Of a DNA stretch of 41,433 nt, positions 18,776-41,375 are shown piece by piece; position 1 is the first letter of the stretch, and each line of letters starts with the position of its first letter. The notes under the pieces were generated by a model. That model saw only the letters and a program-made list of their open reading frames with translations. It was not told the origin of the DNA and made no database searches. The DNA is from Candidatus Nealsonbacteria bacterium (lineage in GTDB: Bacteria > Patescibacteriota > Minisyncoccia > Minisyncoccales > RBG-13-42-11): NCBI GenBank assembly GCA_019923625.1, contig JAHXGN010000002.1:1-41433 (forward strand), in the 5' to 3' direction. Made by a program: the position numbers and the translations under genes.

Positions 18776-18818
18776 AAAATAGATTGTAAAAAATAGCAGT
18801 ATTGTGGATAAGTAAAAT

Positions 18819-19510: not shown

Positions 19511-19511
19511 T

Positions 19512-19805
19512 ATGGCAAAAGAGATAGAAATAAGAAAAAAAGCGGTTCGGGAATTAACGGGCAAGGGTTGGATAATCTGGTATCCGGCTAAAGTTCGCTA
19601 TAAACAAAACGATATCTTCGGGATTATCGATTTATTGGCTCTGAGAAAGAAAAAAATGAGATATATTCAGTTAACCACCTTGCCAAATGTGGCTAGACAG
19701 AGGAAAAAGATTTTAAATTTTTTTAAAAATGAAAAGGTCAAGTTACCGGTGGAAATCTGGGTTTGGTCAAAAAAAAAGAAAAAATTTAAGACAGAAATAG
19801 TTTAG
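19512..19805 (+). CDS. Hypothetical small basic protein, possibly Hjc-like PD-(D/E)XK fold
   Basis: 97 aa, starting 2 nt after the yebC stop. ExxxxxAVRELTGKGW...DIFGIIDLLAL...YIQLTT loosely parallels Hjc (ERELxxLLxxxGF...VDLVA...IEVK), but with QLT in place of ExK. Confidence 0.3.
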   Translation: MAKEIEIRKKAVRELTGKGWIIWYPAKVRYKQNDIFGIIDLLALRKKKMRYIQLTTLPNVARQRKKILNFFKNEKVKLPVEIWVWSKKKKKFKTEIV

Positions 19806-23699: not shown

Positions 23700-24845
23700 T
23701 TATCTCGATTTTATCGGCATTATAACGTAAAAATAACTTTGATCCTGGTCCGATTTTAAAATAGCCGGTCCCTCTTGGCCGTTAATTTCAAAAATAATTT
23801 GGTTTCCTTCAATATTTAAAAGACCATTTATCAAAAAACGGTGGTTAAAAGAAACCGACAATGTTTCTCCTTTTATTTTGGCCTTTAAAGAACCGTGATA
23901 TTCTCCTAAATCGGCCGATTGGCTGAAAACCTGAACTTCCTCTTTTGAGGAGTTGATTTTAAATTTAATTTCGCTTATTTTCCCGCTAAAAAGGGAAGCG
24001 ATTTTTACTTGATTGAGAAACTCTTTTTTATCCAAAATAATTTGGTTGGTAAATTTTTGGGGGATAATTTCCTGATAATTAGGGTATTCTCCGTCTATCA
24101 AGCGAGAAAAAAGCTGAATTTGAGGAAAAGGGGTTTCTTCCATTAAAATCTCAAACGTTACTTGGTTGGGTGAAAAATAAATTTTTAAATCTCTTTTCTT
24201 CTCGCCAAAAATATTTATTATTTCCCGAGCCGTTTTTTGAGGAAGAATAAATAAATATTCTTTATCCAAAGGAATGTTTTTTTCTTTTAAAAAATCGGAG
24301 TAAAAAAGTTTTTTTTCTCCTAACCGAAAACTATCGGTGGCGGCTAAAACTAAGTGGTCTTTTTTAAATTGAAAAAAAATTCCTGAAATTTCCGGCCGGG
24401 AGGAAGAAACAGCCGGAATATCAATAATTTGATTTAGACCTCGGCAAAAAAGAAAACTGTCAAAAACCATTGTTTCTTCGGTGATTAGATTAGGAAAAAG
24501 AGGAAACTCCTCTGAAGACATTCCTTTAATTTGGCTTTTATTTTTTTCTGTTTCAATAAAAAAATTTAAGTCTTTAGTTTTTAATGTTATTTTTTTATTC
24601 GGCAGAAAGCCAATAAAACTTGATAAAACCCGGGAAGGAATGACAATTTTTCCTTGTTTTTCAATTTTTGACAAACCCCACCACCTAATTCCCATTTCTA
24701 AATCAGTGGCTGACAAATTTAAAAAATTACCCTCTGTTTTAAATAAAACATAATTTAAAATTGGTAAGGTGGTTGATTTAGTAATAATTTTTTCAACAAC
24801 AAACAACCCTTGTTTTAGTTTTTCTTGTAATATTTCTAATATCAT
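23700..24845 (-). CDS. dnaN: DNA polymerase III beta sliding clamp
   Basis: 381 aa with three-domain clamp pattern (ILxxVLFK..., ATDSFRL, FNxRFLxxxL), immediately downstream of dnaA. Confidence 0.9.
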   Translation of the reverse strand: MILEILQEKLKQGLFVVEKIITKSTTLPILNYVLFKTEGNFLNLSATDLEMGIRWWGLSKIEKQGKIVIPSRVLSSFIGFLPNKKITLKTKDLNFFIETEKNKSQIKGMSSEEFPLFPNLITEETMVFDSFLFCRGLNQIIDIPAVSSSRPEISGIFFQFKKDHLVLAATDSFRLGEKKLFYSDFLKEKNIPLDKEYLFILPQKTAREIINIFGEKKRDLKIYFSPNQVTFEILMEETPFPQIQLFSRLIDGEYPNYQEIIPQKFTNQIILDKKEFLNQVKIASLFSGKISEIKFKINSSKEEVQVFSQSADLGEYHGSLKAKIKGETLSVSFNHRFLINGLLNIEGNQIIFEINGQEGPAILKSDQDQSYFYVIMPIKSR

Positions 24846-26685: not shown

Positions 26686-26820
26686 ATGAGCATTACTTAT
26701 CAACCCAAAAAGAAAAAAAGAAAAAGAACTCATGGATTTAGAAAAAGACAAAAAACCAAAAATGGAAAAAGGGTTTTAGTTAAAAGAAGAAGAAAGGGAA
26801 GATGGAATCTGGCTGCCTGA
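26686..26820 (+). CDS. rpmH: 50S ribosomal protein L34
   Basis: Not in the ORF track (44 aa). My translation is [44 protein letters not shown], the classic L34 sequence, upstream of rnpA. Confidence 0.9.
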
Positions 26821-27940: not shown

Positions 27941-28414
27941 ATGACAACAAAAGATATTGAAGAAATTAAAAAAACAATAAAAGAATTTTTTGAAAAAATT
28001 GCCTTTGAAACAGAAGTCGTATTTTTATCTTTCACGGATTCAAATTTTATTGTTAATTTGAAAACCGAAGAACCCCAACTTTTAATCGGGGAAGGGGGTC
28101 AAACCCTGTCCGAAATTCAACACTTATTAAAAGCAATTTTAAAAAGAAAAATAGAAGCGTTTTTTTATCTTGATTTGGATATTAATGACTACAAAAAGAA
28201 AAAAATTCAATACCTGAAAGAATTGGCTAACTCAATTGCCGAAGAAGTTGCTTTGACCCAAAAAGAAAAAATTCTCTCGCCAATGTCAGCTTACCAGAGA
28301 AGAATCATTCATTTGGAGTTATCCGAAAGAAAAGATATTGCCACCGAAAGTATTGGCAAAGAGCCTGAAAGAAGAATAATTGTCCGGCCCTTATTGCCCC
28401 AGCCGGAAATTTAA
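27941..28414 (+). CDS. jag: Jag-type KH/R3H RNA-binding protein
   Basis: KH-like LIGEGGQTLSEIQHLL and R3H YQRRIIHLEL, in the yidC-jag context. Confidence 0.8.
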   Translation: MTTKDIEEIKKTIKEFFEKIAFETEVVFLSFTDSNFIVNLKTEEPQLLIGEGGQTLSEIQHLLKAILKRKIEAFFYLDLDINDYKKKKIQYLKELANSIAEEVALTQKEKILSPMSAYQRRIIHLELSERKDIATESIGKEPERRIIVRPLLPQPEI

Positions 28415-30195
28415 ATGTTTAAGCCCTTGGCTTTTTTTATTTTTAGCAGTTGTTCGGGCGAACTAGTTACAATCTGGTCTTCGGTATAAGAGGCCACCAC
28501 TTTAATAGCCGCATGTTTTTGGCCGGCAAAAAATATTCCTTCCCCGACAGCCGCTTCCAGTAATAAATATTTTTCTTGCTCGGTTAAATTAAATGTTTTT
28601 TGAACAACATCAATCGTGGCTGGCGATTGTTTTAATAAAAGCTGCAAAGAAGAATTGCTAATAATCGCTTGACCGTAATTAGACCTCATAAAATCATTAA
28701 CATCCTGGGTAATGGTCGTTACCCCCAGCCAGTATTTTCTTCCTCTTTTGCACATTCCGAATAAAAAAGAAGCTCCATCTTCTGATTGCATTATCCACCA
28801 GGCCTCATCAATAACCAAAATCCTTTTTTTTAATTTTGACCTGACCAAATTCCAGATATATCTCATAATAATAAACATTGCCATTGGCCTTAATTCATCT
28901 TCCATATCCCTGATTCCAAAAACGACCAAGGACTTGTCAACCGAGATATTTGTTGGTTGGTTGAAGAATTGGGAAAAAGTGCCCTTGGTGAATTTTCTTA
29001 ATCTTTCAACCAAACTTTCCGTTCCCTCCATTCCCTCCAAAACCGATTCCAAATCAGAAAAAAGAGGCAAATTTTCTTTCCAAACAAGAGGGTCGGTTTC
29101 CGGAGTAATGTCTTTGGCAGCATAGGTCTCGGTTAAAGCCCTGTCTAAAATAGCGTCTTCTTCCGGACTTAATCCCTTGAGCATCACTCTTAACAAGCCA
29201 ACCAAGTTAATCACATTTGACCTTAAAACATCCTCTGCTTTTTCATCTTCTCTGGGAATGGGTAAATCAAAAGGATTGATGTGATTGGCTGAAGCCAAAG
29301 AAATATTTATAAAAGAACCGTTAACAGCTTCGGCCAAGAACCGATATTCATTTTCCGGATCAATGATAATAATATCTGTTCCGAGCATTAAAGAACGGAG
29401 AATTTCCAATTTAACAAAATAGGATTTACCCGAACCTGATTTGGCAAAAATGACAAAATTGGCATTTTCCAAACTAAAACGTTCAAATAAAATCAAAGAA
29501 TTATTATGACGGTTAATTCCATATAAAATTCCCTCGCTTGAACTCAAATCAAAAGAAACAAATGGAAATAAGCTTGATAAGGGGTCAGTGTTCATTGGAG
29601 TGTGAACCTGAAGCAAATCCAAACCATAAGGAGCGCAGGAGTTAAATCCTTGTTTTTGCTGGTAAAGAGCCGGTTTAATATAGACCAAGCGGGCTTCTAA
29701 AATTGACCTTAATGTTGTTTCAATTTTTCTCAGTTCTTGTTCGCTGTCTCCATAAACAGTCAGATAAAGGCCAAACTTAAACATTCTTTCTTGAGCGGTT
29801 TGCAGTCTTTCTCTTAATGTCTCAATGTCTTTATAGGCGATTTCTAAAGAGGGTTCGCTAATAAGACCCTTTTCTTCTCTTTCATTAATTTCGGCTTGAA
29901 CTTCGGTCACTTTTTTTCTTAATTGTCTTAAAGTCGCTCCGGTATCAACTGGATGAAAGAAAAAAGAGATATCCATCGGAATGTCCGAATTAATAATCGG
30001 GGAAAACCAGCCGGAACTCAAATACCGAGGATAAGAAAAAATAAAAAAGGCCTTGGCAAACCTTTCGCCTAATTTAATATGAGTGGAGTCAATAATGATT
30101 GAAGAGGGGGCAATAATATCGGTCTCCCGGATTTCTTCTATTTTAAAAATTTCATCTTCGGCTTTTTCCTTTTTTTTAAAAAATGGCAATTTCAT
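28411..30195 (-). CDS. virB4: VirB4/TrbE/PrgJ-type type IV secretion ATPase
   Basis: 594 aa. N-terminal VirB4-type domain (FFIFSYPRYLSSGWFSPII), Walker A FAKSGSGKSYF, Walker B ILVIDEAWW, C-terminal TTITQD motif. Confidence 0.85.
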   Translation of the reverse strand: MKLPFFKKKEKAEDEIFKIEEIRETDIIAPSSIIIDSTHIKLGERFAKAFFIFSYPRYLSSGWFSPIINSDIPMDISFFFHPVDTGATLRQLRKKVTEVQAEINEREEKGLISEPSLEIAYKDIETLRERLQTAQERMFKFGLYLTVYGDSEQELRKIETTLRSILEARLVYIKPALYQQKQGFNSCAPYGLDLLQVHTPMNTDPLSSLFPFVSFDLSSSEGILYGINRHNNSLILFERFSLENANFVIFAKSGSGKSYFVKLEILRSLMLGTDIIIIDPENEYRFLAEAVNGSFINISLASANHINPFDLPIPREDEKAEDVLRSNVINLVGLLRVMLKGLSPEEDAILDRALTETYAAKDITPETDPLVWKENLPLFSDLESVLEGMEGTESLVERLRKFTKGTFSQFFNQPTNISVDKSLVVFGIRDMEDELRPMAMFIIMRYIWNLVRSKLKKRILVIDEAWWIMQSEDGASFLFGMCKRGRKYWLGVTTITQDVNDFMRSNYGQAIISNSSLQLLLKQSPATIDVVQKTFNLTEQEKYLLLEAAVGEGIFFAGQKHAAIKVVASYTEDQIVTSSPEQLLKIKKAKGLNI

Positions 30196-30205
30196 TGTTC
30201 TTGTA

Positions 30206-30844
30206 TTAGACGGTTAACTCCGGTAGGATTTCCGGATAATAACCAAACTCAGCTTCTCTGGGGTGATGTAATGCCCAGAAAAATTCAATTAATTCTTCAG
30301 TGGTCAAAGGAACGGCTTGCAAGCCGCATCTTCTTAAACCCATAGCCACAAATTCCATTCTCTGCCAAAGTTGATTTTTACACCGCGAAAACTCTTCTTT
30401 GGTTAAAGCCGGTAGGGCAGGAGCTTTTAATAATTTAGATAGCGGCATCCCCTGGGCTTCCAAAATAGTGAAAGGGATGACGATAAAAAAGGTCTTAAAC
30501 ATTATTGTTCCGGACTGAATCAAGTTTTCAATAAATTTGTGATATTCCTTTATTTGGATTTTTAATAATTCGTCCTCCTGTTTTAATTCCAAGTTTTTTA
30601 ATTTGTCAAGATAGCCGGTGATATTTAATCGCCTCGAGTTAACGACAATCTGGCAGGAAAAATCAAGGGAATTCAAAAAATTCTGAAATTGATAAATTAT
30701 GGCATTTTGTTCCTTCTCTGCTTTCAAGGCAAAATTCAAAGAAGAGGTCATTAAAACCCCCCTTAACGCTCTGTTTTTTAAAATAATAATCCCTTCTCTA
30801 ATCTGGCCGATTTCCAAAAATTGTTGAGTTGTCAAGGAAGCCAC
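30206..30844 (-). CDS. Hypothetical protein, weakly reminiscent of a VirB4 N-terminal domain
   Basis: 212 aa with a GTG start 4 nt after the upstream stop. IREGIIILKNRALRGVLMTSSLNFALKAEKEQ resembles the start of CagE/TrbE/VirB-type N-domains. No NTPase motifs. Confidence 0.4.
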   Translation of the reverse strand: MASLTTQQFLEIGQIREGIIILKNRALRGVLMTSSLNFALKAEKEQNAIIYQFQNFLNSLDFSCQIVVNSRRLNITGYLDKLKNLELKQEDELLKIQIKEYHKFIENLIQSGTIMFKTFFIVIPFTILEAQGMPLSKLLKAPALPALTKEEFSRCKNQLWQRMEFVAMGLRRCGLQAVPLTTEELIEFFWALHHPREAEFGYYPEILPELTV

Positions 30845-30848
30845 ATTT

Positions 30849-31253
30849 TTATCTTGTTTTTATTTCAATTAAAGTGGAAAGTTTTTTTAATTTACCCCCT
30901 TCAACAATTTTTAAGGGAACAGTTTCTTCTTCTTTTTCTTTGACCCTTTCTTTTTTAATAATTTTTGGGGGCATGGTTTTTTTCTGCCAAAAATAATTTT
31001 TTCCGGAATACGAGAATTTAAAAAAATTGATTAAAACCGTGGGCAGGGGCTGGCTATTGATTTTCAAAAAAGCAAAAGCAAAACCGGCGCTGAATAAAAA
31101 TAGGCAAAGAATTAAAAAAAGAAAAAAGGGAACAGCGTAATAAAGAAAAAAGGAAATGCCGCCGGCAAAAGCCAGAAAGAAAAACTGGCGCAAGGTAAGA
31201 GGCCCGACAATTTTGGGCTCCATTTCAATAAATTGTGGAACAGTAAATTGCAT
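30849..31253 (-). CDS. PrgI-family / VirB3-like small membrane protein
   Basis: MQFTVPQFIEMEPKIVGPLTLRQFFFLAFAG followed by two TM helices, the characteristic PrgI family opening. Directly upstream of the VirB4 module. Confidence 0.65.
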   Translation of the reverse strand: MQFTVPQFIEMEPKIVGPLTLRQFFFLAFAGGISFFLYYAVPFFLFLILCLFLFSAGFAFAFLKINSQPLPTVLINFFKFSYSGKNYFWQKKTMPPKIIKKERVKEKEEETVPLKIVEGGKLKKLSTLIEIKTR

Positions 31254-31256
31254 ACT

Positions 31257-31655
31257 TTATACAACCGGCTCCCGATAAACATCTTCTTTAGCCGGTTTTT
31301 CTTTTTCTTTTTTTAAAGAAAGGATAATTTCGGCTTTATAGAGGTCTTGCAAACTGTGTTTTACCGGGAAAAAAATAAAGCGGTTGATTTCATGATAGAC
31401 CTCCTTTGCTTTTTCCGGTTTTAGATTTATTTCTTTTTCTAAAAACTCTTTAAAATCAGCCGGCGGCAAAAGCCCCAAAAAAACATCGCCGATTCCTCTG
31501 GCAACCTGGCTGATTTTTTCTTCTTTAACTTCATTTCTAAGGCAGATATTTCTGATATTTTCCGTGATTTCTGCTGAAAAAATCGCTTCTTGTAATTCTT
31601 GGGGAAGCAGATTGTAAATTTTCCAAAGTTCTTCTTGACTATATTCTTTTGGCAT
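31257..31655 (-). CDS. Hypothetical soluble protein (132 aa)
   Basis: Operonic, with a 3-nt gap downstream. No recognisable motif. Confidence 0.5.
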   Translation of the reverse strand: MPKEYSQEELWKIYNLLPQELQEAIFSAEITENIRNICLRNEVKEEKISQVARGIGDVFLGLLPPADFKEFLEKEINLKPEKAKEVYHEINRFIFFPVKHSLQDLYKAEIILSLKKEKEKPAKEDVYREPVV

Positions 31656-31676
31656 AAGTTATCATAATTAATAATT

Positions 31677-33671
31677 TTATGGCGGTGGGACCCACATTCC
31701 TCCAGGTCCAGGCTTCCAGCCGGGAGGTGGAGTAGTGGTAGGAGGTGGAGTGGTGATAGGAGGTGGAGTAGTAGGAGTGGGGACTATGTGTCCAAAGAGT
31801 CTTTGGCCCTGTCCTTCTTCAAAATAATTGATTAAACCTGGATTTTTTAGTACGTTTTCAATGTAATCTCTGGGATCAGCTTGTTGGCTAAGACAATCAC
31901 GAATACTATTTACTGCTATTTCTCCTTTGGCCGCAATTAAAGAGTTCATTCGCTCAGCTGAAAAGGTTTTTAAGGATGTTTCTATAAAAAGGTTATTTTT
32001 TATGTCGGTATTTGAAATAAATTTAAGATTAGGATTTTTAATTTTCGAAACCGCATCATCTAATGTTTCTCCAGATCTTTGAGAAGAAAGTATTGGAAAA
32101 GCAGCGTTTATTAAACGAGTCCTTCCCATTTTTTCAGCTACCTCAAGCATCTTATCCTTATCTATTTTTCCCAAATCTATTAATTTTTGAATATCTGACA
32201 CATCTTCGTTTTCAATCATATTTTCTATTATAAATTGACGTTTTTTATCACTTCTTTCACTCAAAAGAGAATCAGCTTTAGCATCGCCACTAAGTCCTTT
32301 CATTTCTTCATCTACCCCCTCCTTTTTTTTCAATTCTTCTTTTTCCAAGTGGGCTTTATAATCAGTTCCAGCAGCTCGAAAACCTAAACTGGAAGCAAAA
32401 CCCATTGCTCTTGCCGCCCCAATACCGACTTTTTGACCAAAGGTTAGTGTTTTCCCTGATTCTTCTTGTTTTTCTTGTCTTTCTTCTGCCTCTTCACCTT
32501 TTTGAGCCTGTTGAGCCGCTTGTGTTTTTAAGGCCCCTAAAGCTAAACTACCCATTTTTGTTAGAGGCCCGCCAGGAGCGATTAGGGCCTTTCCCTGGTC
32601 TATCATTGCCTGAGCGCCTTGTGGCATAAATTTTTTAACAATAAAAGCAGTTACTGCAAAATAAATAGCCAAAAATATATAATAAAGAACATATTGGTCA
32701 AGAATAAACCAACCGACAACTGTTTCAACCACACCGGGCGTTTCTTTAGGCACTATTTGTTCGCCAACCCCCATTCCCAAAACCATAAGAAATAAAAGTA
32801 TTACTCCCAAAAGAAGCCATTCAAGAAGAGTTTTGAACCAGAGTGTCCAGTATTTTTGCGTGGCTGGTAAAATTAAACAAATAAAAGCCAAGGGAGCAAG
32901 TATTGCTAATATCCAAACAAGAAAAGCCCTAACAATAAACAAAATCGCAAAAATTAAAAAAACGCCGCTTAAAATAAAAGCAATAACAACCTGAAAAACC
33001 CAAACCAGAAGAGTTGTATGAAAAGCAGCAAGCCAAGTAGCAACAAGGGCAAATTGAGTAAAAGGACCAACAAAAGGTATGAGATAACTAGCAACCATAA
33101 CAGAAATATTGGCAGTCATACTCCCCAAGCCGGCTAACATCCTATCTTGTAAAGGATTTATTATTGCGCCAACCCCGCCCCTTGGTAAAAAGGTATTGAA
33201 AAGAATATTGGAAATATCAACCAAAATTGCCACAAAAAGCAAACTGAAATTCAGCAAGAGAGCGACAATAATTAATCTAGGTAAGGCCTTTTTTAAACCA
33301 TAAGTTTCAATTTTAAAAATAAAAGCATAGGCAATGGCTAAAAGAATCAAAATAATAAAGAGGTTAGCCAGGCCGGCTGTAAAATCCCAACCCCTGGCTA
33401 TCAAAAGATTATCTTGAATAGTCAGCAACTCTTGGCTTCCCAATATTGCCCTATTAAGCAAACTTGCGGTAAACGAAAGAGATATCAAGGCAAGAAGATA
33501 AATAATTATCATCTGAATTAAGAAGGCTGATATCGGGCCGGCCTTTTCTTCTACCAGGCCAGATATTTTTTTGAAATAATCGAAAAAACCACCCCAAAAG
33601 GCAAAACCTATCTCGGGCAAAAGCAAGAGTATTAAGATTAAGACAAATAAGTATTTGGGCTTAATAGACAT
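31677..33671 (-). CDS. Polytopic VirB6/TrbL-like membrane protein with a soluble C-terminal domain and Pro/Thr-rich tail
   Basis: 664 aa. About 8-9 hydrophobic helices over the first 370 or so aa, then a charged linker, an alpha-helical domain and PTPTTPPPITTPPPTTTPPPGWKPGPGGMWVPPP. Assignment rests on topology and context only. Confidence 0.55.
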   Translation of the reverse strand: MSIKPKYLFVLILILLLLPEIGFAFWGGFFDYFKKISGLVEEKAGPISAFLIQMIIIYLLALISLSFTASLLNRAILGSQELLTIQDNLLIARGWDFTAGLANLFIILILLAIAYAFIFKIETYGLKKALPRLIIVALLLNFSLLFVAILVDISNILFNTFLPRGGVGAIINPLQDRMLAGLGSMTANISVMVASYLIPFVGPFTQFALVATWLAAFHTTLLVWVFQVVIAFILSGVFLIFAILFIVRAFLVWILAILAPLAFICLILPATQKYWTLWFKTLLEWLLLGVILLFLMVLGMGVGEQIVPKETPGVVETVVGWFILDQYVLYYIFLAIYFAVTAFIVKKFMPQGAQAMIDQGKALIAPGGPLTKMGSLALGALKTQAAQQAQKGEEAEERQEKQEESGKTLTFGQKVGIGAARAMGFASSLGFRAAGTDYKAHLEKEELKKKEGVDEEMKGLSGDAKADSLLSERSDKKRQFIIENMIENEDVSDIQKLIDLGKIDKDKMLEVAEKMGRTRLINAAFPILSSQRSGETLDDAVSKIKNPNLKFISNTDIKNNLFIETSLKTFSAERMNSLIAAKGEIAVNSIRDCLSQQADPRDYIENVLKNPGLINYFEEGQGQRLFGHIVPTPTTPPPITTPPPTTTPPPGWKPGPGGMWVPPP

Positions 33672-33723
33672 AATATTTTTTATTTCTTAAAAGACCGGAT
33701 CTTCTATCTATATACCCTTATCT

Positions 33724-34701
33724 TTATGCTACATGTTTCTTTTTTACCGGTAACAGAATCAAGGGCGGTACCAGTATATAAGTAGTGGTTTTGGCTATTT
33801 GAAAGGTTCTAGAACCGTTTAATTCTAATGGTTCAGCATCAATCGCCGGTTCAATGGAAAAACTATCAGCATTCCTTGTTGTCCAGGTGATAGTTACTTC
33901 TCTTGGACGATAAATAGTAGCAGGATTAGCTTTAAGGGTGCAACCAATAGCGGTCGGGTCTTCTTTTTTTTCCACAAAAAGCATTATGCTATTTATCTCT
34001 GTTCCGGATTTAAAATAAGAAGTATTGGGCGGGAGAGAGGTAATTTCTGTTTTGCAATTAGCTCCTGAATAAAGCATTAATAAGCCAGCGCAGGCATGAG
34101 CCCTTTCTCCACCAATAAATGCCTTGGATCGTATATGTAATATTGGGTGCTGGAGCCAACCCGTACCCACGCTGACACAATCAAGTGGGAAAAGGGAGTG
34201 TGCCGTGCCGTCTTTTAACTCTTTCTCTGTTTTGCCAACAACCACCTCAAGTTTATCACAGGGAATACCCAGTAATTCGTCAAGCCCTGGTTTTTTTTCT
34301 CCCTCCTCAACCTCCCATCCTGGTTTAAAAACAGGGGGCCTGAGAACGGTTAATTCTGGATTAATAGTATGTAAAACTAAAAAGGAACTTAGAAGTAAAA
34401 CCAAACCAAAGAAAGCTGATTGAATTCGGTTCCAGGACTCTTTCATTTTTGTCGGATCGCCGACAGAGGTTAGATATTGAAAACCGGCAATTAAGAGAGC
34501 GATAAAAACTGCCATTCCGCCCAAAAAAATTCCCCATTCGTAAAGATATTGAACCAGGTCAGTAAGTTGACTATCATCGCCTAATGGTGTTCCAAGGGGT
34601 GAGTCTGGCCAGTCCAGTTGCAAAGCCCAGGCTTCAAAAGAGACGGTTAAAAATCCCAAAACAATTAAGGCAAAAATAATTTTTTTAGTAGAATTTTTCA
34701 T
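33724..34701 (-). CDS. TrbC/VirB2-type pilin-domain protein with a C-terminal extension of about 200 aa
   Basis: Signal peptide, then LVQYLYEWGIFLGGMAVFIALLIAGFQYLTSVGDPTKMKESWNRIQSAFFGLVLLLSSFLVLHTI (two-helix pilin hairpin), then a Cys-containing extracellular-looking domain. Confidence 0.6.
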   Translation of the reverse strand: MKNSTKKIIFALIVLGFLTVSFEAWALQLDWPDSPLGTPLGDDSQLTDLVQYLYEWGIFLGGMAVFIALLIAGFQYLTSVGDPTKMKESWNRIQSAFFGLVLLLSSFLVLHTINPELTVLRPPVFKPGWEVEEGEKKPGLDELLGIPCDKLEVVVGKTEKELKDGTAHSLFPLDCVSVGTGWLQHPILHIRSKAFIGGERAHACAGLLMLYSGANCKTEITSLPPNTSYFKSGTEINSIMLFVEKKEDPTAIGCTLKANPATIYRPREVTITWTTRNADSFSIEPAIDAEPLELNGSRTFQIAKTTTYILVPPLILLPVKKKHVA

Positions 34702-34727
34702 CTTCTTTTATTTTAGAACAAAAAAAA

Positions 34728-35402
34728 TTATTGAGCAATAACAATTGAGTCAAAGATAAATTCGGCTTCTTTGATTGATTCTCCCCATTCAATTCCCGAA
34801 ACATAAAACGAAACTAAATAGGTTTTTTCTTTCCCCCAAATTATTTTTTCTTTTGAAGAGAAAAAAGGATGACCTTCTCTTAGGTAAACAGCTTCAAAAA
34901 AAATAAAATCTTCCCCTTTTTCCAAACCAACAATTTCCATTACTTCCCTTTCTCCTTGGTGTTGTTTTTTTATTTTTTCCAGAAAATTTTCCAAATTTTG
35001 TTTTCCTTTGAATTCCCAAACCATTAAAAAAGAAAGAAAAGGTTCTTTCACCCTCATTTTATGATTGAAAAATAAAATTTTACCCCCTTCGTTCTCATCT
35101 GTTTTTATTCTTTCTCTATTCAACCCTAATAATAACTCTTTTCTTCCCTCTGTCCAGCCGGCTGGATATTTCATTTTAAATTTTTTATCTTGACTGACAA
35201 ATTCTTTATAATTTTCTTCTAAAAATTCATTTATCGGCAGAAGCGGTTTTATTTCAACCTTCGGCAGTTTAAATTGAGGCAGTTGGATTTCAGGCAAAGA
35301 TTCTTGAAAATTTTTAAAACGCCAATAAGTAACCAAACTTAAAACAAGAATGCAGAATAAGGTTAAAAAAAGTAATTTTTTATCGTTTTTCTTGTTCTCC
35401 AT
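34728..35402 (-). CDS. Bitopic membrane protein, possibly PsbP/Mog1-like alpha/beta domain
   Basis: Preferred start MENKKNDKK (35402), 4 nt after the upstream stop; the ORF track extends to 35504. One N-terminal TM helix and a KYPAGW motif. Confidence 0.5.
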   Translation of the reverse strand: MENKKNDKKLLFLTLFCILVLSLVTYWRFKNFQESLPEIQLPQFKLPKVEIKPLLPINEFLEENYKEFVSQDKKFKMKYPAGWTEGRKELLLGLNRERIKTDENEGGKILFFNHKMRVKEPFLSFLMVWEFKGKQNLENFLEKIKKQHQGEREVMEIVGLEKGEDFIFFEAVYLREGHPFFSSKEKIIWGKEKTYLVSFYVSGIEWGESIKEAEFIFDSIVIAQ

Positions 35403-35406
35403 AATT

Positions 35407-36855
35407 TTAAAAATTAATCCGCCACCAGGGGCCAAAAAGTCCGACCTGATAGCCGAATAAAAGCAAAACAAAAGAAACAAGAAACCAGGCAGTAAAAATA
35501 ACAAGATAACCTATTCCGGCTGATTTCCACAAAGATTTTATTTGAATTAGGGCTTCGGCTTTACCGAGAGAAAAATAAAGAATCAGGGCGCTGATTACTA
35601 CCAAGACAACTAAAATCAAGGGAGCCACTCTCCACAAAAAGAAATCAATAATACTTTTTACCATTATAAAAATATGTTTTAATTGGCAGGAGTCGGTTTC
35701 ATTCCAGTCAGTGTCTGGATTGTCATAATCTCGGCCGCAGGGGACCAAACCGCCCCAACCCGGCGCCGCCTTTCTGCTAGTCAGATTAAAAAACCAATCG
35801 CTCCATTTGCCGGTTTCCCGACAATCTTTATCCAAACAAGCCCTGACTTGCCATTGGTATTCTCCTTTACATTCTAAGGGATAAAATTGAGAGTTCAATG
35901 GTATTATTTTAATAATTTCCTGGTTAACTTTTGGCCGACATTCCGGCTTGTTTTCTTCTTCAGAAAGGAAAATATATTTTATTTTAAATTGATAAGAAAC
36001 AGCGCCATCAACCTTGTCCCAGGAAAAAAAATGACGGTCGCCTGTAAAAACAGTCGTGTTATTTCCTGGCTTAGGATTAATTGGAGTCTGAAGCTTAAAA
36101 GTTTTAAAAGTTCTTAAAGGACTCCAAGGGCCGCAAAGTTCTCCTTTTGCTCTGGCGCAGGTTTTTACCCGCCAGAAGTAGTCTTTTTCTAAAATTAGGT
36201 CTGGATAATCAAGGGAAACTCCTGGTTTTTCTAATATTTTTTTTAATTCTACTAAAACCAAACCTGGATGTGGAGGATCAAGGTAAATCTCTGGTTCTTC
36301 TAATATTTTTTTCAAACTTAAATTAAGATCCTCAATTTTTGAAATATAAATATATTTAAAAATATAGGATTTGGCCCCAGGCACATCTTCCCACTTAAAA
36401 TTGACCGGAATAGGAACATTATTTGCGTTAGTCAGAGGATAAATAAGTTCTGGCGGCCGGCCAGTGGTTCTAAAAATAGAATCCTCCGACCAAAAGGCCT
36501 CACATTTTTTCCCCTCATAATCCCAACAAGGCTGAACCCTCCAAGTATAAAAAGTATCAAGTTTAAGTTCAGAATAATCAAATCTTAAATTAGAGACTTG
36601 GGTTGTGCCGGTGGCCGGAGTTGTTTGGTTCCTTTCATATATTTGATAATTCCAAGAATTTGTTCCTAAAAATTTGTGCCATTTTAATAAAACTGGAAGA
36701 CCAATTGGAGTTTTCCCTGCCGGATCATTTGGCGGTGAAAATAAAACAGGTTCTGAAAGAGTATCTTCAATTGATAACAGCCATTTCTGGCTTTTTTCAG
36801 AACAAACAGTACCAGCCCAATATCGACAAGCGCTAACTTGCCAACCCCAAGCCAC
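35407..36855 (-). CDS. C-terminal part of a split giant surface protein: repeated FN3-like Cys-pair modules plus a C-terminal VirB2-type pilin module
   Basis: Four modules ending W(Q/R)V(S/Q/K/R)xC...C...W(S)...F(x)T. The C-terminus GGLVPCGRDYDNP...CQLKHIFIMVKSIIDFFLWRVAPLILVVLVVISALILYF...GIGYLVIFTAWFLVSFVLLLFG is a pilin-like two-helix hairpin. The ORF opens on GTG within continuous homology to the upstream ORF. Confidence 0.65.
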   Translation of the reverse strand: MAWGWQVSACRYWAGTVCSEKSQKWLLSIEDTLSEPVLFSPPNDPAGKTPIGLPVLLKWHKFLGTNSWNYQIYERNQTTPATGTTQVSNLRFDYSELKLDTFYTWRVQPCWDYEGKKCEAFWSEDSIFRTTGRPPELIYPLTNANNVPIPVNFKWEDVPGAKSYIFKYIYISKIEDLNLSLKKILEEPEIYLDPPHPGLVLVELKKILEKPGVSLDYPDLILEKDYFWRVKTCARAKGELCGPWSPLRTFKTFKLQTPINPKPGNNTTVFTGDRHFFSWDKVDGAVSYQFKIKYIFLSEEENKPECRPKVNQEIIKIIPLNSQFYPLECKGEYQWQVRACLDKDCRETGKWSDWFFNLTSRKAAPGWGGLVPCGRDYDNPDTDWNETDSCQLKHIFIMVKSIIDFFLWRVAPLILVVLVVISALILYFSLGKAEALIQIKSLWKSAGIGYLVIFTAWFLVSFVLLLFGYQVGLFGPWWRINF

Positions 36856-38021
36856 AAAAGGCGGTTTTCCTTTTCTATCTTCTTTGGTGAAAAAACATGA
36901 TCATGGTCCTTGTTGGAAAATTTAGGTTCAGGATGCCGGCCCGGCCAAGTCCTTAGTATTTTTGACCGGCAATTTTGTCCGGGCAGGACCGGTCTTAATT
37001 CAGGATGACATTCTTCTTTTATTATTTTTATTTTTCCACTCTCTATTCTATAAGATATTTTATGAAAAAACAATCTATAACTCATTGGTCTCTGATAACC
37101 TCTTTCTGGGAGTTGAAAATAGAACGGACACCACCTAAGAATGAGATTTAACTTTTCATTCTCAGCCATTTTTTCTAGGCCCTGCCAATCAGGATCAAAA
37201 GGAAGAATGGGTTCAGGCGCAGAACTGGTTGTAAAACTCCAACTGCTTGCCGGTCCGCAGTTTTGGCCGTCTATGGTACAACAAGCCTGGACTTGCCAAG
37301 GGTGGATGGTGTTTGATTTTAAAGTACAGGAAGGCGGAATAAATTCTGACATCAGCGAATAATTGGAATGGGGATCAGTCGGTCGGGTATTTCCGATTGT
37401 TATTCGGTAAGATTGGGGGCCATCAGGTAAGGCTTTCCAGTAAGCAACATCATCCCAGTCCAATTTTACCGGGAGAAGGATGTTATTTGGGTCTTGGCTC
37501 GGCTCTGGATTAGCTGGATCGGTAGGATAGTTGGGATTATAGTAATATCTTGGATTTTTTGGAGTTTCCAGACATTGGCCGGCGCATTGGCAAGAGGGTT
37601 TAGTTTTTAGAGATGCATCATCAATACATTTTTGCCAGCCAGAGCAAGTTTTGTGGTTATTCCAGCCACCTTCAGGCGGCCAAGCAGGGCAAGAATCGCA
37701 AGAGATCCAATTTACACATCTCCACCCTGTGGTGCAGCCTTTATCGTCTTTTATTCTTTCCGCAGTGCCCGTTCTTCCCCTTTGGCATGTTCTTTCTCTT
37801 TTTTGAATCTTTGCATCAGGACATTCTCCTATGCATTGGTATTCAATATCTGAATAGGAAGGACATTCATTACAACTTGGTGCAGGAGGCGGCTCAGGAC
37901 AGGCAGGCTTTTCAAGCGGCGGTGTGGTAGCTGCAAAAGAATGTCCGAGAAAAAATAGAAAAAATAAAGAAATGGGCGCCAGAACAGTTAAAACAAAGAT
38001 AAGGCTAATATTTTTATTCAT
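36684..38021 (-). CDS. N-terminal part of the split giant surface protein: signal peptide, Cys-rich region, first FN3-like module
   Basis: Signal/TM helix, about 24 Cys in the first 150 mature residues, and module HPWQVQACCTIDGQNCGPASSWSFTT. The last 70 or so codons (after 36890) overlap the next ORF out of frame and look like frameshift read-through. Confidence 0.65.
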   Translation of the reverse strand: MNKNISLIFVLTVLAPISLFFLFFLGHSFAATTPPLEKPACPEPPPAPSCNECPSYSDIEYQCIGECPDAKIQKRERTCQRGRTGTAERIKDDKGCTTGWRCVNWISCDSCPAWPPEGGWNNHKTCSGWQKCIDDASLKTKPSCQCAGQCLETPKNPRYYYNPNYPTDPANPEPSQDPNNILLPVKLDWDDVAYWKALPDGPQSYRITIGNTRPTDPHSNYSLMSEFIPPSCTLKSNTIHPWQVQACCTIDGQNCGPASSWSFTTSSAPEPILPFDPDWQGLEKMAENEKLNLILRWCPFYFQLPERGYQRPMSYRLFFHKISYRIESGKIKIIKEECHPELRPVLPGQNCRSKILRTWPGRHPEPKFSNKDHDHVFSPKKIEKENRLLWLGVGKLALVDIGLVLFVLKKARNGCYQLKILFQNLFYFHRQMIRQGKLQLVFQFY

Positions 38022-38080
38022 TATTAAATTTTAAAACTTTTGGTTAAATTTATCCAGTCTTTGAGCTGTGGATAAACTCC

Positions 38081-38109
38081 TTGACATTTAAAGACCAGGA
38101 TATTAAACT
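38081..38109 (+). promoter_or_regulatory. Putative promoter of the LysM/M23 gene
   Basis: TTGACA (38081-38086), 17 nt, TAAACT (38104-38109). It is preceded by the inverted pair TTATCCAGT / TGTGGATAA at 38050-38075. Confidence 0.4.
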
Positions 38110-38126
38110 AAAAAAAGAGAAAGAGA

Positions 38127-39269
38127 ATGATAATTTCGCTTTTAAAGATATTTTTAAGACCGAAAGAAATTTTAAAGAGGGCGAAAAAGTTTTTAAGGGG
38201 TTTAAAAAAAGACCCTTTTTGCTATTTTTGGCTGATTTCCCTTATTTTATTCGGAATTTTAAATTTTAGCTCTTTTTATTTAAACAAAAATTTCAAAATC
38301 GCAGCTCAAAATTTTCTTCCCCCCTTTTTTAATTTACAAAATCAAAACTCCAATCAAGTAGAATTTTTATTTTTAAATTTTTCCGGAAAAACTTCTTTGG
38401 AAGTTCCCAGCCCGATTTTAATTGAAAAAAACAGCTTGAAAGGAATTTCTCCACCCTTAATAATTACTCCACAGGTTTTGGCGGTTCTTGCCGGACAGGA
38501 CTCTTCTTTTCAGGAGTCAAGGGGAATTATTGAATATCTTGTTGAACCAGGAGACAACCTTTGGTTGATTGCCGATAAATTTAATATAACATTAGAGACC
38601 CTGCTTTGGGCTAATAATTTAAATAAGAATTCAAAAATCCAACCGGGTCAAAAATTGGTTATTCTGCCGGTTTCCGGAGTAATTCATTATGTTAGGGCTG
38701 GCGATACGATTTCTGAAATCGCTCAAAAATATCAAGGAAAAATTAGCCAGATTATTACCTTTAATAATCTTATTAAAGAAGATGATATTTTTATCGGCGA
38801 TATTTTAATTATTCCCGACGGGAAAAAACCTTATTCTTCAACAAAACTTGCTTCTCAGTCGGCTTTGGCCGTTCCTTTACCCTCCAATTATTTTATTTAC
38901 CCGACTGTTTCTACTCGGATTAGCCAGGGTCTACACTGGTACAATGCGGTTGATTTTGACGGTCGGTGCGGAGATCAAATTTTTGCTGCGGCTGCTGGAA
39001 CAGTTTTGAGGGTTAAATTAACCGAATCTGTCTCAAGAGACGTTTTCGGCGGAGCAGGCAACCACCTGACAATTTTACACCCCAATGGAACAATAACAAT
39101 GTATGGTCATCTTTTAACCAGTTTTGTCAATCCGGGCGATAGAGTTTCCCAGGGCCAAATTATTGCCCTGATGGGTGGACAACCAGGCGCTCCAGGAGCC
39201 GGAACCTCAACCGGTTGCCATCTTCATTTTGAAGTCAGGCAAGCCAGAAATCCTTTTGTCAGGCAATAA
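38127..39269 (+). CDS. LysM-domain M23 family peptidoglycan metallo-endopeptidase
   Basis: N-terminal TM helix. Two LysM repeats (YLVEPGDNLWLIADKFNITLETLLWANNL and HYVRAGDTISEIAQKY). M23 motifs HWYNAVDF, GNHLTILHPNG and GCHLHFEV. Confidence 0.85.
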   Translation: MIISLLKIFLRPKEILKRAKKFLRGLKKDPFCYFWLISLILFGILNFSSFYLNKNFKIAAQNFLPPFFNLQNQNSNQVEFLFLNFSGKTSLEVPSPILIEKNSLKGISPPLIITPQVLAVLAGQDSSFQESRGIIEYLVEPGDNLWLIADKFNITLETLLWANNLNKNSKIQPGQKLVILPVSGVIHYVRAGDTISEIAQKYQGKISQIITFNNLIKEDDIFIGDILIIPDGKKPYSSTKLASQSALAVPLPSNYFIYPTVSTRISQGLHWYNAVDFDGRCGDQIFAAAAGTVLRVKLTESVSRDVFGGAGNHLTILHPNGTITMYGHLLTSFVNPGDRVSQGQIIALMGGQPGAPGAGTSTGCHLHFEVRQARNPFVRQ

Positions 39270-39283
39270 TTTTACCAATAAAA

Positions 39284-40816
39284 CTAATAATTAAAATCAA
39301 CTCCTTCTTTTAGCCGATAGATTAAGGATTCATTTAAGTGGTCGGATAAAATTTTTTCAGCCTTGTCCAAATCAGCAATAGTTCTGGCTGTTTTTAAAAC
39401 CCGGTGATAGCCTCGGGCTGACAACTTCCTGGCCTCAACATATTTTCTCAAAAGATTTTGACTTGCCAAATCCAATTGGCAATATTTTTTTATTTCCGGA
39501 ATTTCCATCTCCGAATTGGTCTTTTCCTTTAAAAACCTTTCTCTTTGAATTTTCCTGCATTCTTGCACCCTTTCTCTGATTTCTTGACTGTAATTTTCTT
39601 GGTCAGGGCTTACCAGCTTTTCATACCTTAATTCAGGAAGACTAATAAAAATATCAATTCTATCCATTAAGGGTCCGGAAAGCTTTCTTTGATACATTCT
39701 GATTTGAGAATTGGTGCAGTTGCATTTTTTTTCCGGGTCGTTGAAATAACCGCAGGGGCAAGGATTGGTGGCTGCGACCAAAATAAAACGACTGGGGAAG
39801 GTCAGAAAATGTTTTGACCGGGAGACAATAATTTTACCTTCTTCAATCGGCTGTCTTAAACTTTCCAGAACATCGCGGTGAAATTCGGGAAATTCATCTA
39901 AAAATAAAACCCCCCGATGAGCCAAAGTAATTTCACCTGGCCGGGGAGGATTGCCGCCGCCAATTAAAGCTACTTCGGAACAAGTATGATGGGGAGAGCG
40001 AAATGGCCGGAAATTAATCAAAGGATTTTCTTTTGATAAAAATCCAACAATGCTGTAAATTTTAGTTACTTCCAGGGATTCTTCAAAAGAAAGGGGTGGT
40101 AAAATTGAAGGAATGGCTTTGGCTAATAAGCTTTTGCCGGTACCCGGGGGACCAAACATTAAGAGGTGATGACCGCCGGCCGCTGAAATTTCCAAAGCCC
40201 TTTTGCTTAATTCCTGACCCTTGATATAACCCAAATCAAGCGGATAATTTGGCTGGCAAAGAAAATCCTCATAATTCGTTTTTGAAGAAGAAATTTGCCT
40301 TTTTCCTTCCAGATACTCAATGGTTTCTTTTAAATTATTTACTCCGATTATTTTTATTTCTTTAATTAAGCCGGCCTCTAAGACGTTTTCTTTTGGTAAA
40401 AGGACTTCTTCAAATCCTTTTTCTTTGGCCAAATTAGCAAAAATCAAAGCTCCTTTTATTGGTTTGATTCTACCGTCTAAAGCCAGTTCGCCAAAAAAAA
40501 TTTTATTTTCCGATTGAAATTTTATTTTTTTAGTTGATAAAAGACAACCCAAGGCAATGGGCAAGTCATAAAGAGAACCCTCTTTTTTTAAATCGGCCGG
40601 AGCCAAAGAAACCAAGACCTTCAGGGGCTGGTGATGGGGTGATTGAAAACCCGAGCTTTCAATGGCGCTTCCGACCCTTTCTTTTGATTCTTGAATGGCT
40701 TTGTCAGGCAAGCCAATAATTTCAAAATACTTCATCCCAAAAGAGGTATTGATTTCTATTTCCACAACCTGGGATTCCAAGCCCAAAATTGCTCCTGAAA
40801 AAACTTTAGAAGGCAT
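39284..40816 (-). CDS. comM: YifB/ComM-family Mg-chelatase-like AAA+ ATPase
   Basis: N-terminal Lon-protease-like domain, Walker A FGPPGTGKS, Walker B VLFLDEFPEF, Cys cluster CPCGYFNDPEKKCNC, and a C-terminal ChlI-like helix bundle. Confidence 0.9.
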   Translation of the reverse strand: MPSKVFSGAILGLESQVVEIEINTSFGMKYFEIIGLPDKAIQESKERVGSAIESSGFQSPHHQPLKVLVSLAPADLKKEGSLYDLPIALGCLLSTKKIKFQSENKIFFGELALDGRIKPIKGALIFANLAKEKGFEEVLLPKENVLEAGLIKEIKIIGVNNLKETIEYLEGKRQISSSKTNYEDFLCQPNYPLDLGYIKGQELSKRALEISAAGGHHLLMFGPPGTGKSLLAKAIPSILPPLSFEESLEVTKIYSIVGFLSKENPLINFRPFRSPHHTCSEVALIGGGNPPRPGEITLAHRGVLFLDEFPEFHRDVLESLRQPIEEGKIIVSRSKHFLTFPSRFILVAATNPCPCGYFNDPEKKCNCTNSQIRMYQRKLSGPLMDRIDIFISLPELRYEKLVSPDQENYSQEIRERVQECRKIQRERFLKEKTNSEMEIPEIKKYCQLDLASQNLLRKYVEARKLSARGYHRVLKTARTIADLDKAEKILSDHLNESLIYRLKEGVDFNY

Positions 40817-40850: not shown

Positions 40851-41375
40851 TCAAAAAGAAAAAGCAAAAACAACAACCAAAATTGTTATAACTAAAATTA
40901 AAATTATTAATCTAATCCAGATTTTTTCTCCCAACGAGGATTTTTGGGGCAAAGGACGGAAAATTTCAATTTGGGGTGGCGGAATTTCCAACTTTTCAAA
41001 TTCAGATGAGCCGAGCGGAGTTTTGGGGCTAACTCCTTCTTTACCAGCCACTTTTTCTAAAAAACTTTTTCTTTCTTTTTCTTCTTTTTCTTGAAGTTCG
41101 GCCAACCTTTTTTTAACCCCCTCTGTTTTTACTTGTCTTAATTTTTCTCTTTCTTTTTTTTCTTCTTCTCCGGCTCTTTTTCTTTTTTCCAAAAGAGCTT
41201 TTAAAGAATTTTCTTTCTCTTCTTTTATTTCTTCTATTCCCTTTGATAACCCTTCTTTTTCTTTCTTTTTTTCTTCAATTTCCCTTTCTTTTCTTTTTAT
41301 TTCTTCCTGTTTTTTTCTTTCTTCTTCCTCTTCTTTTTCCAATCTTCTTTTTTCCTCCTCCGCTTTCTTTTCCAT
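40851..41375 (-). CDS. Glu/Lys-rich coiled-coil protein with C-terminal TM anchor
   Basis: 174 aa. About 110 aa of low-complexity E/K repeats, then IWIRLIILILVITILVVVFAF. The ORF is plausible but low complexity. Confidence 0.45.
   Translation of the reverse strand: MEKKAEEEKRRLEKEEEEERKKQEEIKRKEREIEEKKKEKEGLSKGIEEIKEEKENSLKALLEKRKRAGEEEKKEREKLRQVKTEGVKKRLAELQEKEEKERKSFLEKVAGKEGVSPKTPLGSSEFEKLEIPPPQIEIFRPLPQKSSLGEKIWIRLIILILVITILVVVFAFSF

Follow-up and report, generated by a model that had tools for sequence, protein, structure and literature searches.

The closest described relatives of the locus considered here are the type IV secretion systems (T4SSs) of Patescibacteria. In Southlakia epibionticum, Wang et al. 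(2023, Cell; PMC10633639) described a Gram-positive-like T4SS with a pilin array (SEML1_0006-0019) and no recognisable relaxase or coupling protein; transposon sequencing showed that the T4SS and the pilin array are essential for the epibiotic growth of Southlakia, and protein export was suggested as an alternative role for the T4SS. In a survey of 3035 genomes, Quiñonero-Coronel et al. (2025, Microb Genom; PMC12102498) found that the VirB4 proteins of Patescibacteria form a monophyletic clade, nested in the FATA class of mating-pair formation systems (MPF-FATA), within which the tree groups by class. Genes encoding TrsD, PrgI, VirB6, and VirB2-like pilins of the PF18895 family lie near virB4, and M23/LysM proteins are candidates for a VirB1-like function. 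The same survey found relaxases in only 103 of the 3035 genomes, VirD4 homologues that are common in Patescibacteria but lie far from virB4, and, in Paceibacteria, a T4SS located close to dnaA, dnaN, rnpA, and rpmH. The present analysis concerns the T4SS gene cluster at positions 28411-38021 of a 41,433-nt stretch of Candidatus Nealsonbacteria DNA (assembly GCA_019923625.1, contig JAHXGN010000002.1; the whole stretch is called the window). This locus is an ordinary Paceibacteria member of the published Patescibacteria T4SS: the system itself, its lack of conjugation genes, and its proximity to dnaA were already known from work of 2023-2025. The whole interpretation previously made from the letters alone (the sequence-only reading), including its analogy to the ComB system of Helicobacter pylori, is likewise already in print (PMC12102498, PMC11665869). 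For pilin modules fused to adhesins, the colinearity of a split VirB4, and a conserved small protein, p132, no published description was found in a literature survey that was not exhaustive.

The window is low in GC (~35%), and the listing of its open reading frames (ORFs) gives nine in the cluster, all on the minus strand, separated by gaps of 10, 4, 3, 21, 52, 26, and 4 nt and including one overlap of 172 nt (Table 1). The sequence-only reading placed these nine ORFs correctly but counted one gene too many; two of the nine belong to a single frameshifted gene, and the cluster comprises eight genes. Its description of the cluster as a T4SS-derived apparatus of the VirB2/3/4/6 type agrees with the profile and structure matches of the encoded proteins. 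The VirB4-type ATPase, in which the motifs FAKSGSGKS and RILVIDEAWW can be read, matches the NCBIfam equivalog of the CD1110 family (NF045971) with an E-value of 1.4e-108 and a score of 364 bits against a cut-off of 325. Its Pfam matches are to P-loop_TraG (2e-26), AAA_10, and DUF87, its closest PDB match is the C-terminal domain of Thermoanaerobacter VirB4 (4AG5, 1.9e-47), and it is also related by sequence to TrwK, the VirB4 protein of R388 (3e-5). The PRK13898 VirB4 model scores 34 bits, and a test for the archaeal Ced import ATPases was negative, with 51 bits for CedB (cut-off 700) and 18 bits for CedD (cut-off 600). As the alignment to NF045971 spans only positions 181-730 of the 752 in the model, the canonical N-terminal domain of VirB4 is absent from this protein.

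A counterpart of that domain is encoded separately, 10 nt upstream of virB4. The protein, whose gene had been recognised earlier but left without an identity, can now be assigned as a homologue of TrsD and of the VirB4 N-terminal domain: it matches the NCBIfam models Mbov_0397 (positions 111-216, 1.3e-8), CD1110 (positions 10-111, 1.2e-4), and TrsD (NF041427, 4.3e-4), and its orthologues carry a precomputed PF26593 TraC-like match. The PrgI/VirB3-like protein, which contains MQFTVPQFIEMEPKIVGPLTLRQFFF, matches PF12666 (PrgI) above the gathering score (9.5e-9, 36.1 bits versus 27); these profile scores confirm the calls of VirB4 and PrgI/VirB3 made from sequence motifs, and the quoted motifs are present. 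In order, prgI, trsD, and virB4 correspond to positions 29-126, 111-216, and 278-891 of the Mbov_0397 VirB3-VirB4 fusion model, and thus show colinearity with a single fused polypeptide known from the integrative and conjugative elements (ICEs) of mycoplasmas.

Two further proteins complete the set encoded next to virB4, of which the smaller, p132, has no relatives in Pfam or PDB and no transmembrane (TM) segment by hydropathy. An alignment of locus-derived orthologues (L003-L088) reveals a variable charged linker followed by a near-invariant C-terminal D-x-Y-R-E-x-I-E motif, a peptide that could dock onto VirB4 or TrsD. A homologue lies between virB6 and prgI in 61 of 88 loci, a count taken from the first-pass search only, the iterative hidden Markov model (HMM) search having drifted to low-complexity matches at round 3. 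The larger protein, which has no direct match in Pfam, has about seven hydrophobic helices within residues 1-350, followed by a helical, hydrophilic C-terminal domain and by a tail rich in Pro and Thr. Its AlphaFold2 (AF2) model, built on a 28-sequence alignment, has a mean predicted confidence (pLDDT) of 78.4, and the top four Foldseek matches of the model among 350,542 PDB chains are all to TrwI/VirB6 of R388 (7o3v, 8rt9, 8rtd), with a probability of 0.98-0.99 and a TM(target) of 0.44-0.49, although these matches are weak (E ~0.2). A weak match to TrbL (PF04610, 1.2e-3) is seen in one of 28 homologues (P0145), and distant homologues carry a precomputed PF19590 annotation. The Foldseek ranking and the operon position suggest that the protein is VirB6-like, in line with the VirB6/TrbL-like call of the sequence-only reading. 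It diverges fast, the next homologue being 41-43% identical compared to ~78% for VirB4. At the 3' end of virB6 (31723-31777, minus strand), an 18-nt unit, repeated three times in tandem, codes for this tail (PTPTTPPPITTPPPTTTPPP), and at 31767 the window differs in length by 3 nt from strain L001, a metagenome contig (GCA_002581705.1) that is 99.4% identical to the window over 10.4 kb.

The proteins encoded farther upstream are dominated by two-helix T4SS pilin modules joined to large extracellular parts. The shorter pilin-module protein matches T4SS_pilin (PF18895; 4.5e-7, 30.3 bits versus 26.6) and the NCBIfam Mbov_0395 pilin-like model (5.9e-5), and an HMM made from short locus pilins matches its residues 2-122 at 3e-26. 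The longer one is rich in cysteine and, when its reading frame is restored (869 aa), consists of a signal peptide, a Cys-rich region, about five repeats resembling immunoglobulin (Ig) and fibronectin type III (FN3) domains, and a C-terminal two-helix pilin module, whose TM segments are placed at 782-824 and 832-864 by hydropathy. The protein contains 34 cysteines in total, its repeats share the motif W-x-V-x-(A/P)-C...C-G-x-W-S, and its C-terminus matches PF18895 more weakly (3e-3); the pilin modules proposed for both proteins are thus supported by profile matches. In both proteins, the large ectodomains are attached to termini that face outward in VirB2 topology.

Such fusions are common among relatives of the locus. 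A search at E<=1e-3 gave 2891 cluster representatives of the Cys-rich family. Of 29 members, 17 have the Ig_Rha78A_N domain and 14 have T4SS_pilin; GH5 cellulase, M23, or C39-like domains occur in single members of this C-terminal-pilin family. Related loci (L009-L088) encode 96 pilin-module proteins, 91 of them of 200 aa or more; the median length is ~400 aa and the maximum 1520 aa (for example L052:8069-12631 and L009:12374-14857; proteins P0164-P0313). When eight of the longest were scanned, two showed adhesin-type ectodomains, one combining an InlB B-repeat, SpaA, and FN3/Ig domains and the other (L009) carrying a lamin-tail domain, and four had no Pfam match. In the 2025 survey, VirB2 is treated as a small protein and adhesins are not reported (PMC12102498). 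Proteins with T4SS pilin domains are among the most highly expressed genes of unknown function in Paceibacterales co-cultures (PMC10936435). Between the two pilin-module genes lies the gene of a bitopic protein that matched only itself among 5.8 billion proteins. Its orthologues are limited to the subclade of the window, where the order in all seven loci is Cys-rich, bitopic, pilin, virB6. Its topology resembles that of VirB8, its weak profile matches are PsbP-like (PsbP_2 0.035; PDB PsbP 0.44), and a single-sequence AF2 prediction reached a pLDDT of 50.

The Cys-rich gene is frameshifted in the window by five extra bases at 36896-36900, CCATGA[TCATG]TTTTTT (window, CCATGATCATGTTTTTT; L001, CCATGATTTTTT), and deletion of five nucleotides at this site yields the open 869-aa frame. 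L001 has one continuous Cys-rich ORF, and the homologue P0164 is intact at 871 aa, with KDHDHDFF where L001 has KDHDFF. These comparisons identify the site as a polymorphism in the copy number of CATGAT (His-Asp), with the window resembling a two-copy allele that lacks one A ahead of the T6 run, the DNA of P0164 at this site being deduced from its protein. Elsewhere in the aligned cluster region, every indel relative to L001 has a length divisible by three. The frameshift is therefore either a local error of assembly or a real and recent event, be it inactivation or a phase-type change; as a deletion in yebC, elsewhere in the window, is in-frame as well, pervasive indel error is not indicated. 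A programmed frameshift, or two true genes overlapping at 36684-36855, was rejected in favour of a simple indel, since two close relatives encode one continuous protein.

The distribution of the locus was analysed by ORF and phmmer comparison of loci from 80 species-representative genomes, the denominators varying by feature; all 80 loci come from metagenome-assembled genomes of Patescibacteria. VirB4 has at least 8000 homologues at E<=1e-20, and the top 120 are 591-606 aa long and mostly 76-79% identical to it, with one at 93%; all of these that bear a taxon name belong to Paceibacteria, Parcubacteria, or Nealsonbacteria. Across the 80 species-level genomes, VirB4 is 61-79% identical (93% in the further homologue) and always ~594 aa long, and its grouping with the VirB4 proteins of Patescibacteria is strongly implied by these sequence comparisons. 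Across 78 species-level Paceibacteria genomes, the core gene order virB6-p132-prgI-trsD-virB4 hardly varies, nor does its convergent orientation towards jag-yidC-rnpA-(rpmH)-dnaA-dnaN. A prgI gene lies upstream of virB4 in 71 of 71 genomes and trsD immediately upstream of it in 62 of 71; virB6 is present in 54 of 59, convergent jag/yidC genes follow in 58 of 61, and dnaA lies beyond them in 47 of 55. The genomes that share this position and orientation span Nealson-, Staskawicz-, Kaiser-, Nomura-, and Terrybacteria, and three annotated long contigs have the same order as the window from comM through PilB. Variation is seen in the number of pilin-module genes between virB4 and jag, which ranges from 0 to 4, and the accessory parts evolve far faster than VirB4.

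Table 1. Features of the window (positions in the 41,433-nt stretch; strand relative to the sequence as deposited)
Feature	Position	Strand	Description
dnaN	23700-24845	-	left flank
dnaA	25021-26373	-	left flank
rpmH	~26689-26820	+	left flank
rnpA, yidC			left flank, between rpmH and jag
jag	27941-28414	+	left flank, convergent with virB4
VirB4-type ATPase	28411-30195	-	594 aa; Walker A KSGSGKS, Walker B LVIDEAW
TrsD / TraC-like protein	30206-30844	-	212 aa; stand-alone homologue of VirB4 N-terminal domain
PrgI/VirB3-like small membrane protein	30849-31253	-	134 aa; one long hydrophobic hairpin, residues 23-67 (hydropathy)
p132	31257-31655	-	132 aa; small soluble helical protein of no known family
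Extended VirB6-like polytopic protein	31677-33671	-	664 aa
Pilin-module protein	33724-34701	-	325 aa; signal peptide, two-helix T4SS pilin module (44-106), ~200-aa extracellular domain
Bitopic protein	34728-35402	-	224 aa; N-terminal TM helix and ~190-aa ectodomain
Cys-rich pilin-module protein	35407-38021	-	one gene, ~870 aa, frameshifted in the window
Frameshift site	36896-36900	-	yields overlapping ORFs 36684-38021 and 35407-36855
Intergenic region	38022-38126		105 nt between first T4SS gene and LysM/M23 gene; presumed promoter region of both
LysM/M23 hydrolase	38127-39269	+	right flank, divergent; membrane-anchored, 2xLysM and M23
comM/yifB-family gene	39284-40816	-	right flank
PilB	16317-17642	+	elsewhere in the window
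Lamin-tail (LTD) and helix-hairpin-helix (HhH) ComEA-like protein	17657-18775	+	after PilB

One claim of the sequence-only reading about the origin of the cluster does not survive these data. It had proposed a secondary insertion beside the replication origin and had called for a comparison of composition with the flanks; the GC content of the cluster genes (0.30-0.43) and their GC at third codon positions (GC3) fall in the range spanned by the housekeeping genes on either side and carry no foreign signal. No flanking direct repeats were found, the only repeats in the region being of low complexity, and tRNA and Rfam scans gave no sign of foreign origin, the sole tRNA lying 22 kb away. With its conserved position, native composition, and lack of repeats and an integrase, a secondary insertion of the locus is therefore refuted, except as an ancient event, and by sequence comparison the T4SS is a vertically inherited core locus in the form that it takes in the class Paceibacteria. 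The overlap of the jag and virB4 stop codons (TTAA at 28411-28414), which had been read as a further sign of insertion, recurs in three other species. The statement that no terminator follows jag also needs amendment: a weak terminator-like hairpin (AAGCCCTTGGCTT) with a T-run lies just past the jag stop, within the last codons of virB4 (28421-28443, plus strand), although such sites are not more frequent in the region than in shuffled sequence.

The placement of the cluster beside oriC holds in part. The gene order dnaN-dnaA-rpmH-rnpA supports it, but DnaA boxes are not enriched in the window (13 found versus 10 expected), and the GC skew follows the coding strand. Perfect TTATCCACA matches to the DnaA box occur at only two positions in the window, 38067-38075 and 18803-18811 (both minus strand); the former lies in the divergent promoter region between the T4SS and LysM/M23 genes, none lies in the dnaA-rpmH spacer, and the count is at chance level. 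It is plausible, from gene order, that the T4SS operon is transcribed head-on to replication, an orientation that the clade as a whole would then have conserved.

In comparison with the T4SS of the Patescibacteria clade, the locus shows no difference in kind. The two share a VirB4 of MPF-FATA ancestry, TrsD, PrgI/VirB3, VirB6, VirB2-like PF18895 pilins, a nearby M23/LysM hydrolase, a lack of relaxase and type IV coupling protein (T4CP) genes in the vicinity, and, within Paceibacteria, the location near dnaA, dnaN, rnpA, and rpmH. The details of the window for which no published description was found are the large Ig-like or adhesin ectodomains on pilin modules in place of small pilins, and further p132, the subclade-specific bitopic protein, and the frameshifted adhesin-pilin gene. 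With the Gram-positive MPF-FATA systems of pGO1 and pIP501 (TrsC-TrsD-TrsE and TraC-TraD-TraE) and of pCF10 (PrgH-PrgI-PrgJ), the locus has in common the gene order VirB3-like, TrsD-like, VirB4, a monoderm envelope, the lack of VirB7, VirB9, and VirB10, a peptidoglycan hydrolase partner, and a CD1110-family VirB4. In contrast to these systems, the window locus lacks a relaxase, a T4CP, and an oriT, its VirB4 lacks an N-terminal domain of its own, and it is chromosomal, vertically inherited, and origin-proximal. To our knowledge, Gram-positive conjugative systems have no VirB2-like pilin modules, whereas the window has them. The pilus-biogenesis core of the R388 and Ti VirB systems has the same part-types VirB2, VirB3, VirB4, and VirB6, and the best structural matches of the VirB6-like protein are to TrwI/VirB6; the window differs in lacking VirB5, VirB7-VirB11, and an outer-membrane complex, in being monoderm, and in the large ectodomains of its pilin modules.

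In VirB systems, VirB4 drives pilin dislocation, the VirB6/VirB5 stalk is the pilus assembly site of R388, and pilus biogenesis is independent of VirD4. From these known roles, a set that contains only VirB2, VirB3, VirB4, and VirB6 looks like the core for the biogenesis of a pilus or surface structure. A scan of the ~38 window ORFs of at least 90 aa against Pfam found no integrase, relaxase, VirD4/FtsK-type T4CP, VirB11, or VirB9/10, in agreement with the sequence-only reading; a relaxase, a VirD4/TcpA-type coupling protein, and an oriT are all lacking from the 41.4-kb window. Conjugation, which had been doubted from the outset, is very unlikely with neither a relaxase nor a coupling protein nearby. 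In the reading preferred here, the T4SS does not serve conjugation and is probably not the transformation pathway of the cell. The locus probably encodes a VirB4-powered machine for host contact that builds a pilus or displays adhesins, and which may also be a conduit. Its cytoplasmic-membrane core consists of PrgI/VirB3, the stand-alone VirB4 N-domain protein TrsD, the VirB4 ATPase, the extended VirB6, and the small cytoplasmic protein p132. VirB4, docked at the membrane through PrgI and TrsD, would extract pilin-module proteins from the membrane at the VirB6 platform, and these proteins would be assembled or displayed through a gap in the wall opened by a hydrolase, as a short pilus or an adhesin-bearing surface structure that makes contact with a host cell and through which exchange with that cell may take place. 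The LysM/M23 protein (Pfam LysM 7.7e-24, Peptidase_M23 5.8e-20), which the sequence-only reading had cast as a stand-in for VirB1, is a plausible candidate for that role; its gene is the same divergent neighbour in 19 related loci, usually with comM beyond it. The fast divergence of the accessory parts is as expected for host-facing proteins.

Several points weigh against this proposal. The adhesin-pilin gene is frameshifted in the window, no plain short pilin is encoded there, so that a polymerised pilus is not assured, and an 870-aa subunit would be sterically awkward as a major pilin. The VirB6 assignment has weak E-values (Foldseek ~0.2, TrbL 1e-3), and a VirB8-like component is not demonstrated, the profile searches with the bitopic protein being only weakly PsbP-like. 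We know of no experiment on any Paceibacteria T4SS. A 2024 PNAS perspective calls the role of the T4SS "completely unknown" (PMC11665869), and a T4CP or relaxase could be encoded elsewhere in the genome, as VirD4 homologues are found far from virB4 (PMC12102498).

A broader reading, which we regard as possible but doubtful, is that the two-helix T4SS pilin module in Paceibacteria is a general targeting or anchoring tag, and that the origin-proximal machine serves primarily to display adhesins and enzymes or to assemble pili, rather than as a translocator. A second alternative, unlikely on the present evidence, is a T4CP-independent effector translocator like Bordetella Ptl or Brucella VirB, which would export proteins such as hydrolases or toxins onto or into the host, with the pilin-module proteins in an accessory part. 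Some T4SSs are known to function without a T4CP (PMC12857230), protein export was suggested by Wang et al. (PMC10633639), and single members of the pilin-fusion family carry GH5, M23, or C39-like domains; however, a covalent link to membrane or pilin modules keeps these hydrolase domains from being free, the conserved operon contains no candidate effector or chaperone genes, and no secretion signals are known. This reading and that of a host-contact machine are not mutually exclusive.

Uptake is somewhat less probable still. In this alternative, the VirB2/3/4/6 core would resemble ComB and take up DNA, nucleotides, or host molecules, with ComM and ComEA as possible partners. Import of DNA by T4SS-type machines is known from H. 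pylori (ComB) and from archaea (Ced), and the locus resembles ComB in being T4SS-derived, with VirB2/3/4/6-type parts and no relaxase or T4CP in the window. A weak match to CedB (51 bits), the conserved neighbour comM, and the PilB and LTD/ComEA genes in the same conserved region could be taken in the same sense. The PNAS perspective cites ComB as an import precedent, and it has been suggested that Saccharibacteria might obtain nucleotides in this way (PMC11665869). These likenesses amount to an analogy, and it is only as an analogy that the ComB-like label of the sequence-only reading can be kept. The VirB4 is of the conjugative MPF-FATA type (364 bits for CD1110 versus 34 for PRK13898, and 51 of the 700 required for CedB) and belongs to a lineage other than that of ComB, and H. 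pylori is diderm and has ComB7-10. Of the ComB gene set (ComB2, B3, B4, and B6-B10), the window has no equivalents of ComB7-10, and VirB7, VirB9, and VirB10 domains were not found. The window also encodes a separate competence-type module, the standard PilB/ComEA route. The comM, PilB, and LTD/ComEA genes, which had been offered as functional clues, are conserved synteny neighbours of the dnaA region and are no evidence of a functional coupling; in relatives (L003-L006, L012, L018), a single conserved block of synteny holds the PilB and lamin-tail/HhH pair together with dnaA and the T4SS, and the comM/YifB family is widespread regardless of competence. Data from Southlakia, the one relative amenable to genetics, separate the essentiality of the T4SS from ComEC: competence in Southlakia depends on type IV pili and ComEC, and deletion of comEC abolishes competence without an effect on viability (PMC12857230, a review of 2025), while the T4SS is essential (PMC10633639), and its essential role is therefore not ComEC-linked transformation.

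Least probable by far is a remnant or active ICE inserted secondarily beside the origin: the VirB4, PrgI, and TrsD genes do descend from Gram-positive conjugation systems (PMC12102498), and the operon converges on jag, their stop codons overlapping, but the position and orientation are the same in 58 of 61 species-level genomes rather than patchy, the window shows no integrase, relaxase, T4CP, direct repeats, tRNA target, or foreign composition, and VirB4 is highly conserved in a published tree that follows class (PMC12102498), so a recent ICE insertion is effectively refuted, while an ancient single acquisition by the ancestor of the candidate phyla radiation, as the literature proposes, is possible.

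Some features of the flanks deserve mention in their own right. The spacer between the first T4SS gene and the LysM/M23 gene contains promoter-like hexamers on both strands. Beyond comM, 40851-41375 (minus strand) encodes a coiled-coil-like protein of 174 aa that is rich in Lys and Glu, has a TM helix at its C-terminus, and matches no family, and the low-complexity DNA of this gene gives rise to most of the "repeats" detected in the region. Downstream of the ComEA-like gene, in the region 18956-19805 (plus strand), yebC encodes 184 aa, having lost about 60 residues in-frame relative to its 244-aa orthologues, with no frameshift; ruvC, which follows yebC in related genomes, is missing from that place, where an unrelated 97-aa ORF is found. 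The sole mobile-element-like signal of the window is a marginal match of a 225-aa ORF (14945-15622, minus strand) to the IS200-like Y1 transposase (PF01797, 7.7e-5, 23.2 bits versus a cut-off of 23). Genes for RtcA (RNA 3'-phosphate cyclase; 405-1445, plus strand) and RtcB (RNA ligase; 7296-8510, minus strand) lie about 6 kb apart on opposite strands in this very small genome.

Few machines are known to be essential to these ultrasmall bacteria in their epibiotic way of life, and the Patescibacteria T4SS is among them. The window reveals no new kind of system; it provides a clean Paceibacteria example and three testable details, namely the separate VirB4 N-domain protein with its colinearity to fused VirB3-VirB4 polypeptides, the conserved p132 with its D-x-YRE-x-IE tail, and the pilin modules fused to adhesin-like domains, whose ectodomains favour a role in host contact or surface display over DNA transfer. 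If the pilin module does act as a general tag, hundreds of fast-evolving proteins would fuse it, N- or C-terminally, to adhesin domains of the Ig/FN3-like, InlB, SpaA, and lamin-tail types and occasionally to GH5, M23, or C39-like hydrolases, and the machine would be an engine for attacking host envelopes, in which frameshift-prone repeats such as the CATGAT/T6 site could switch adhesins on and off.

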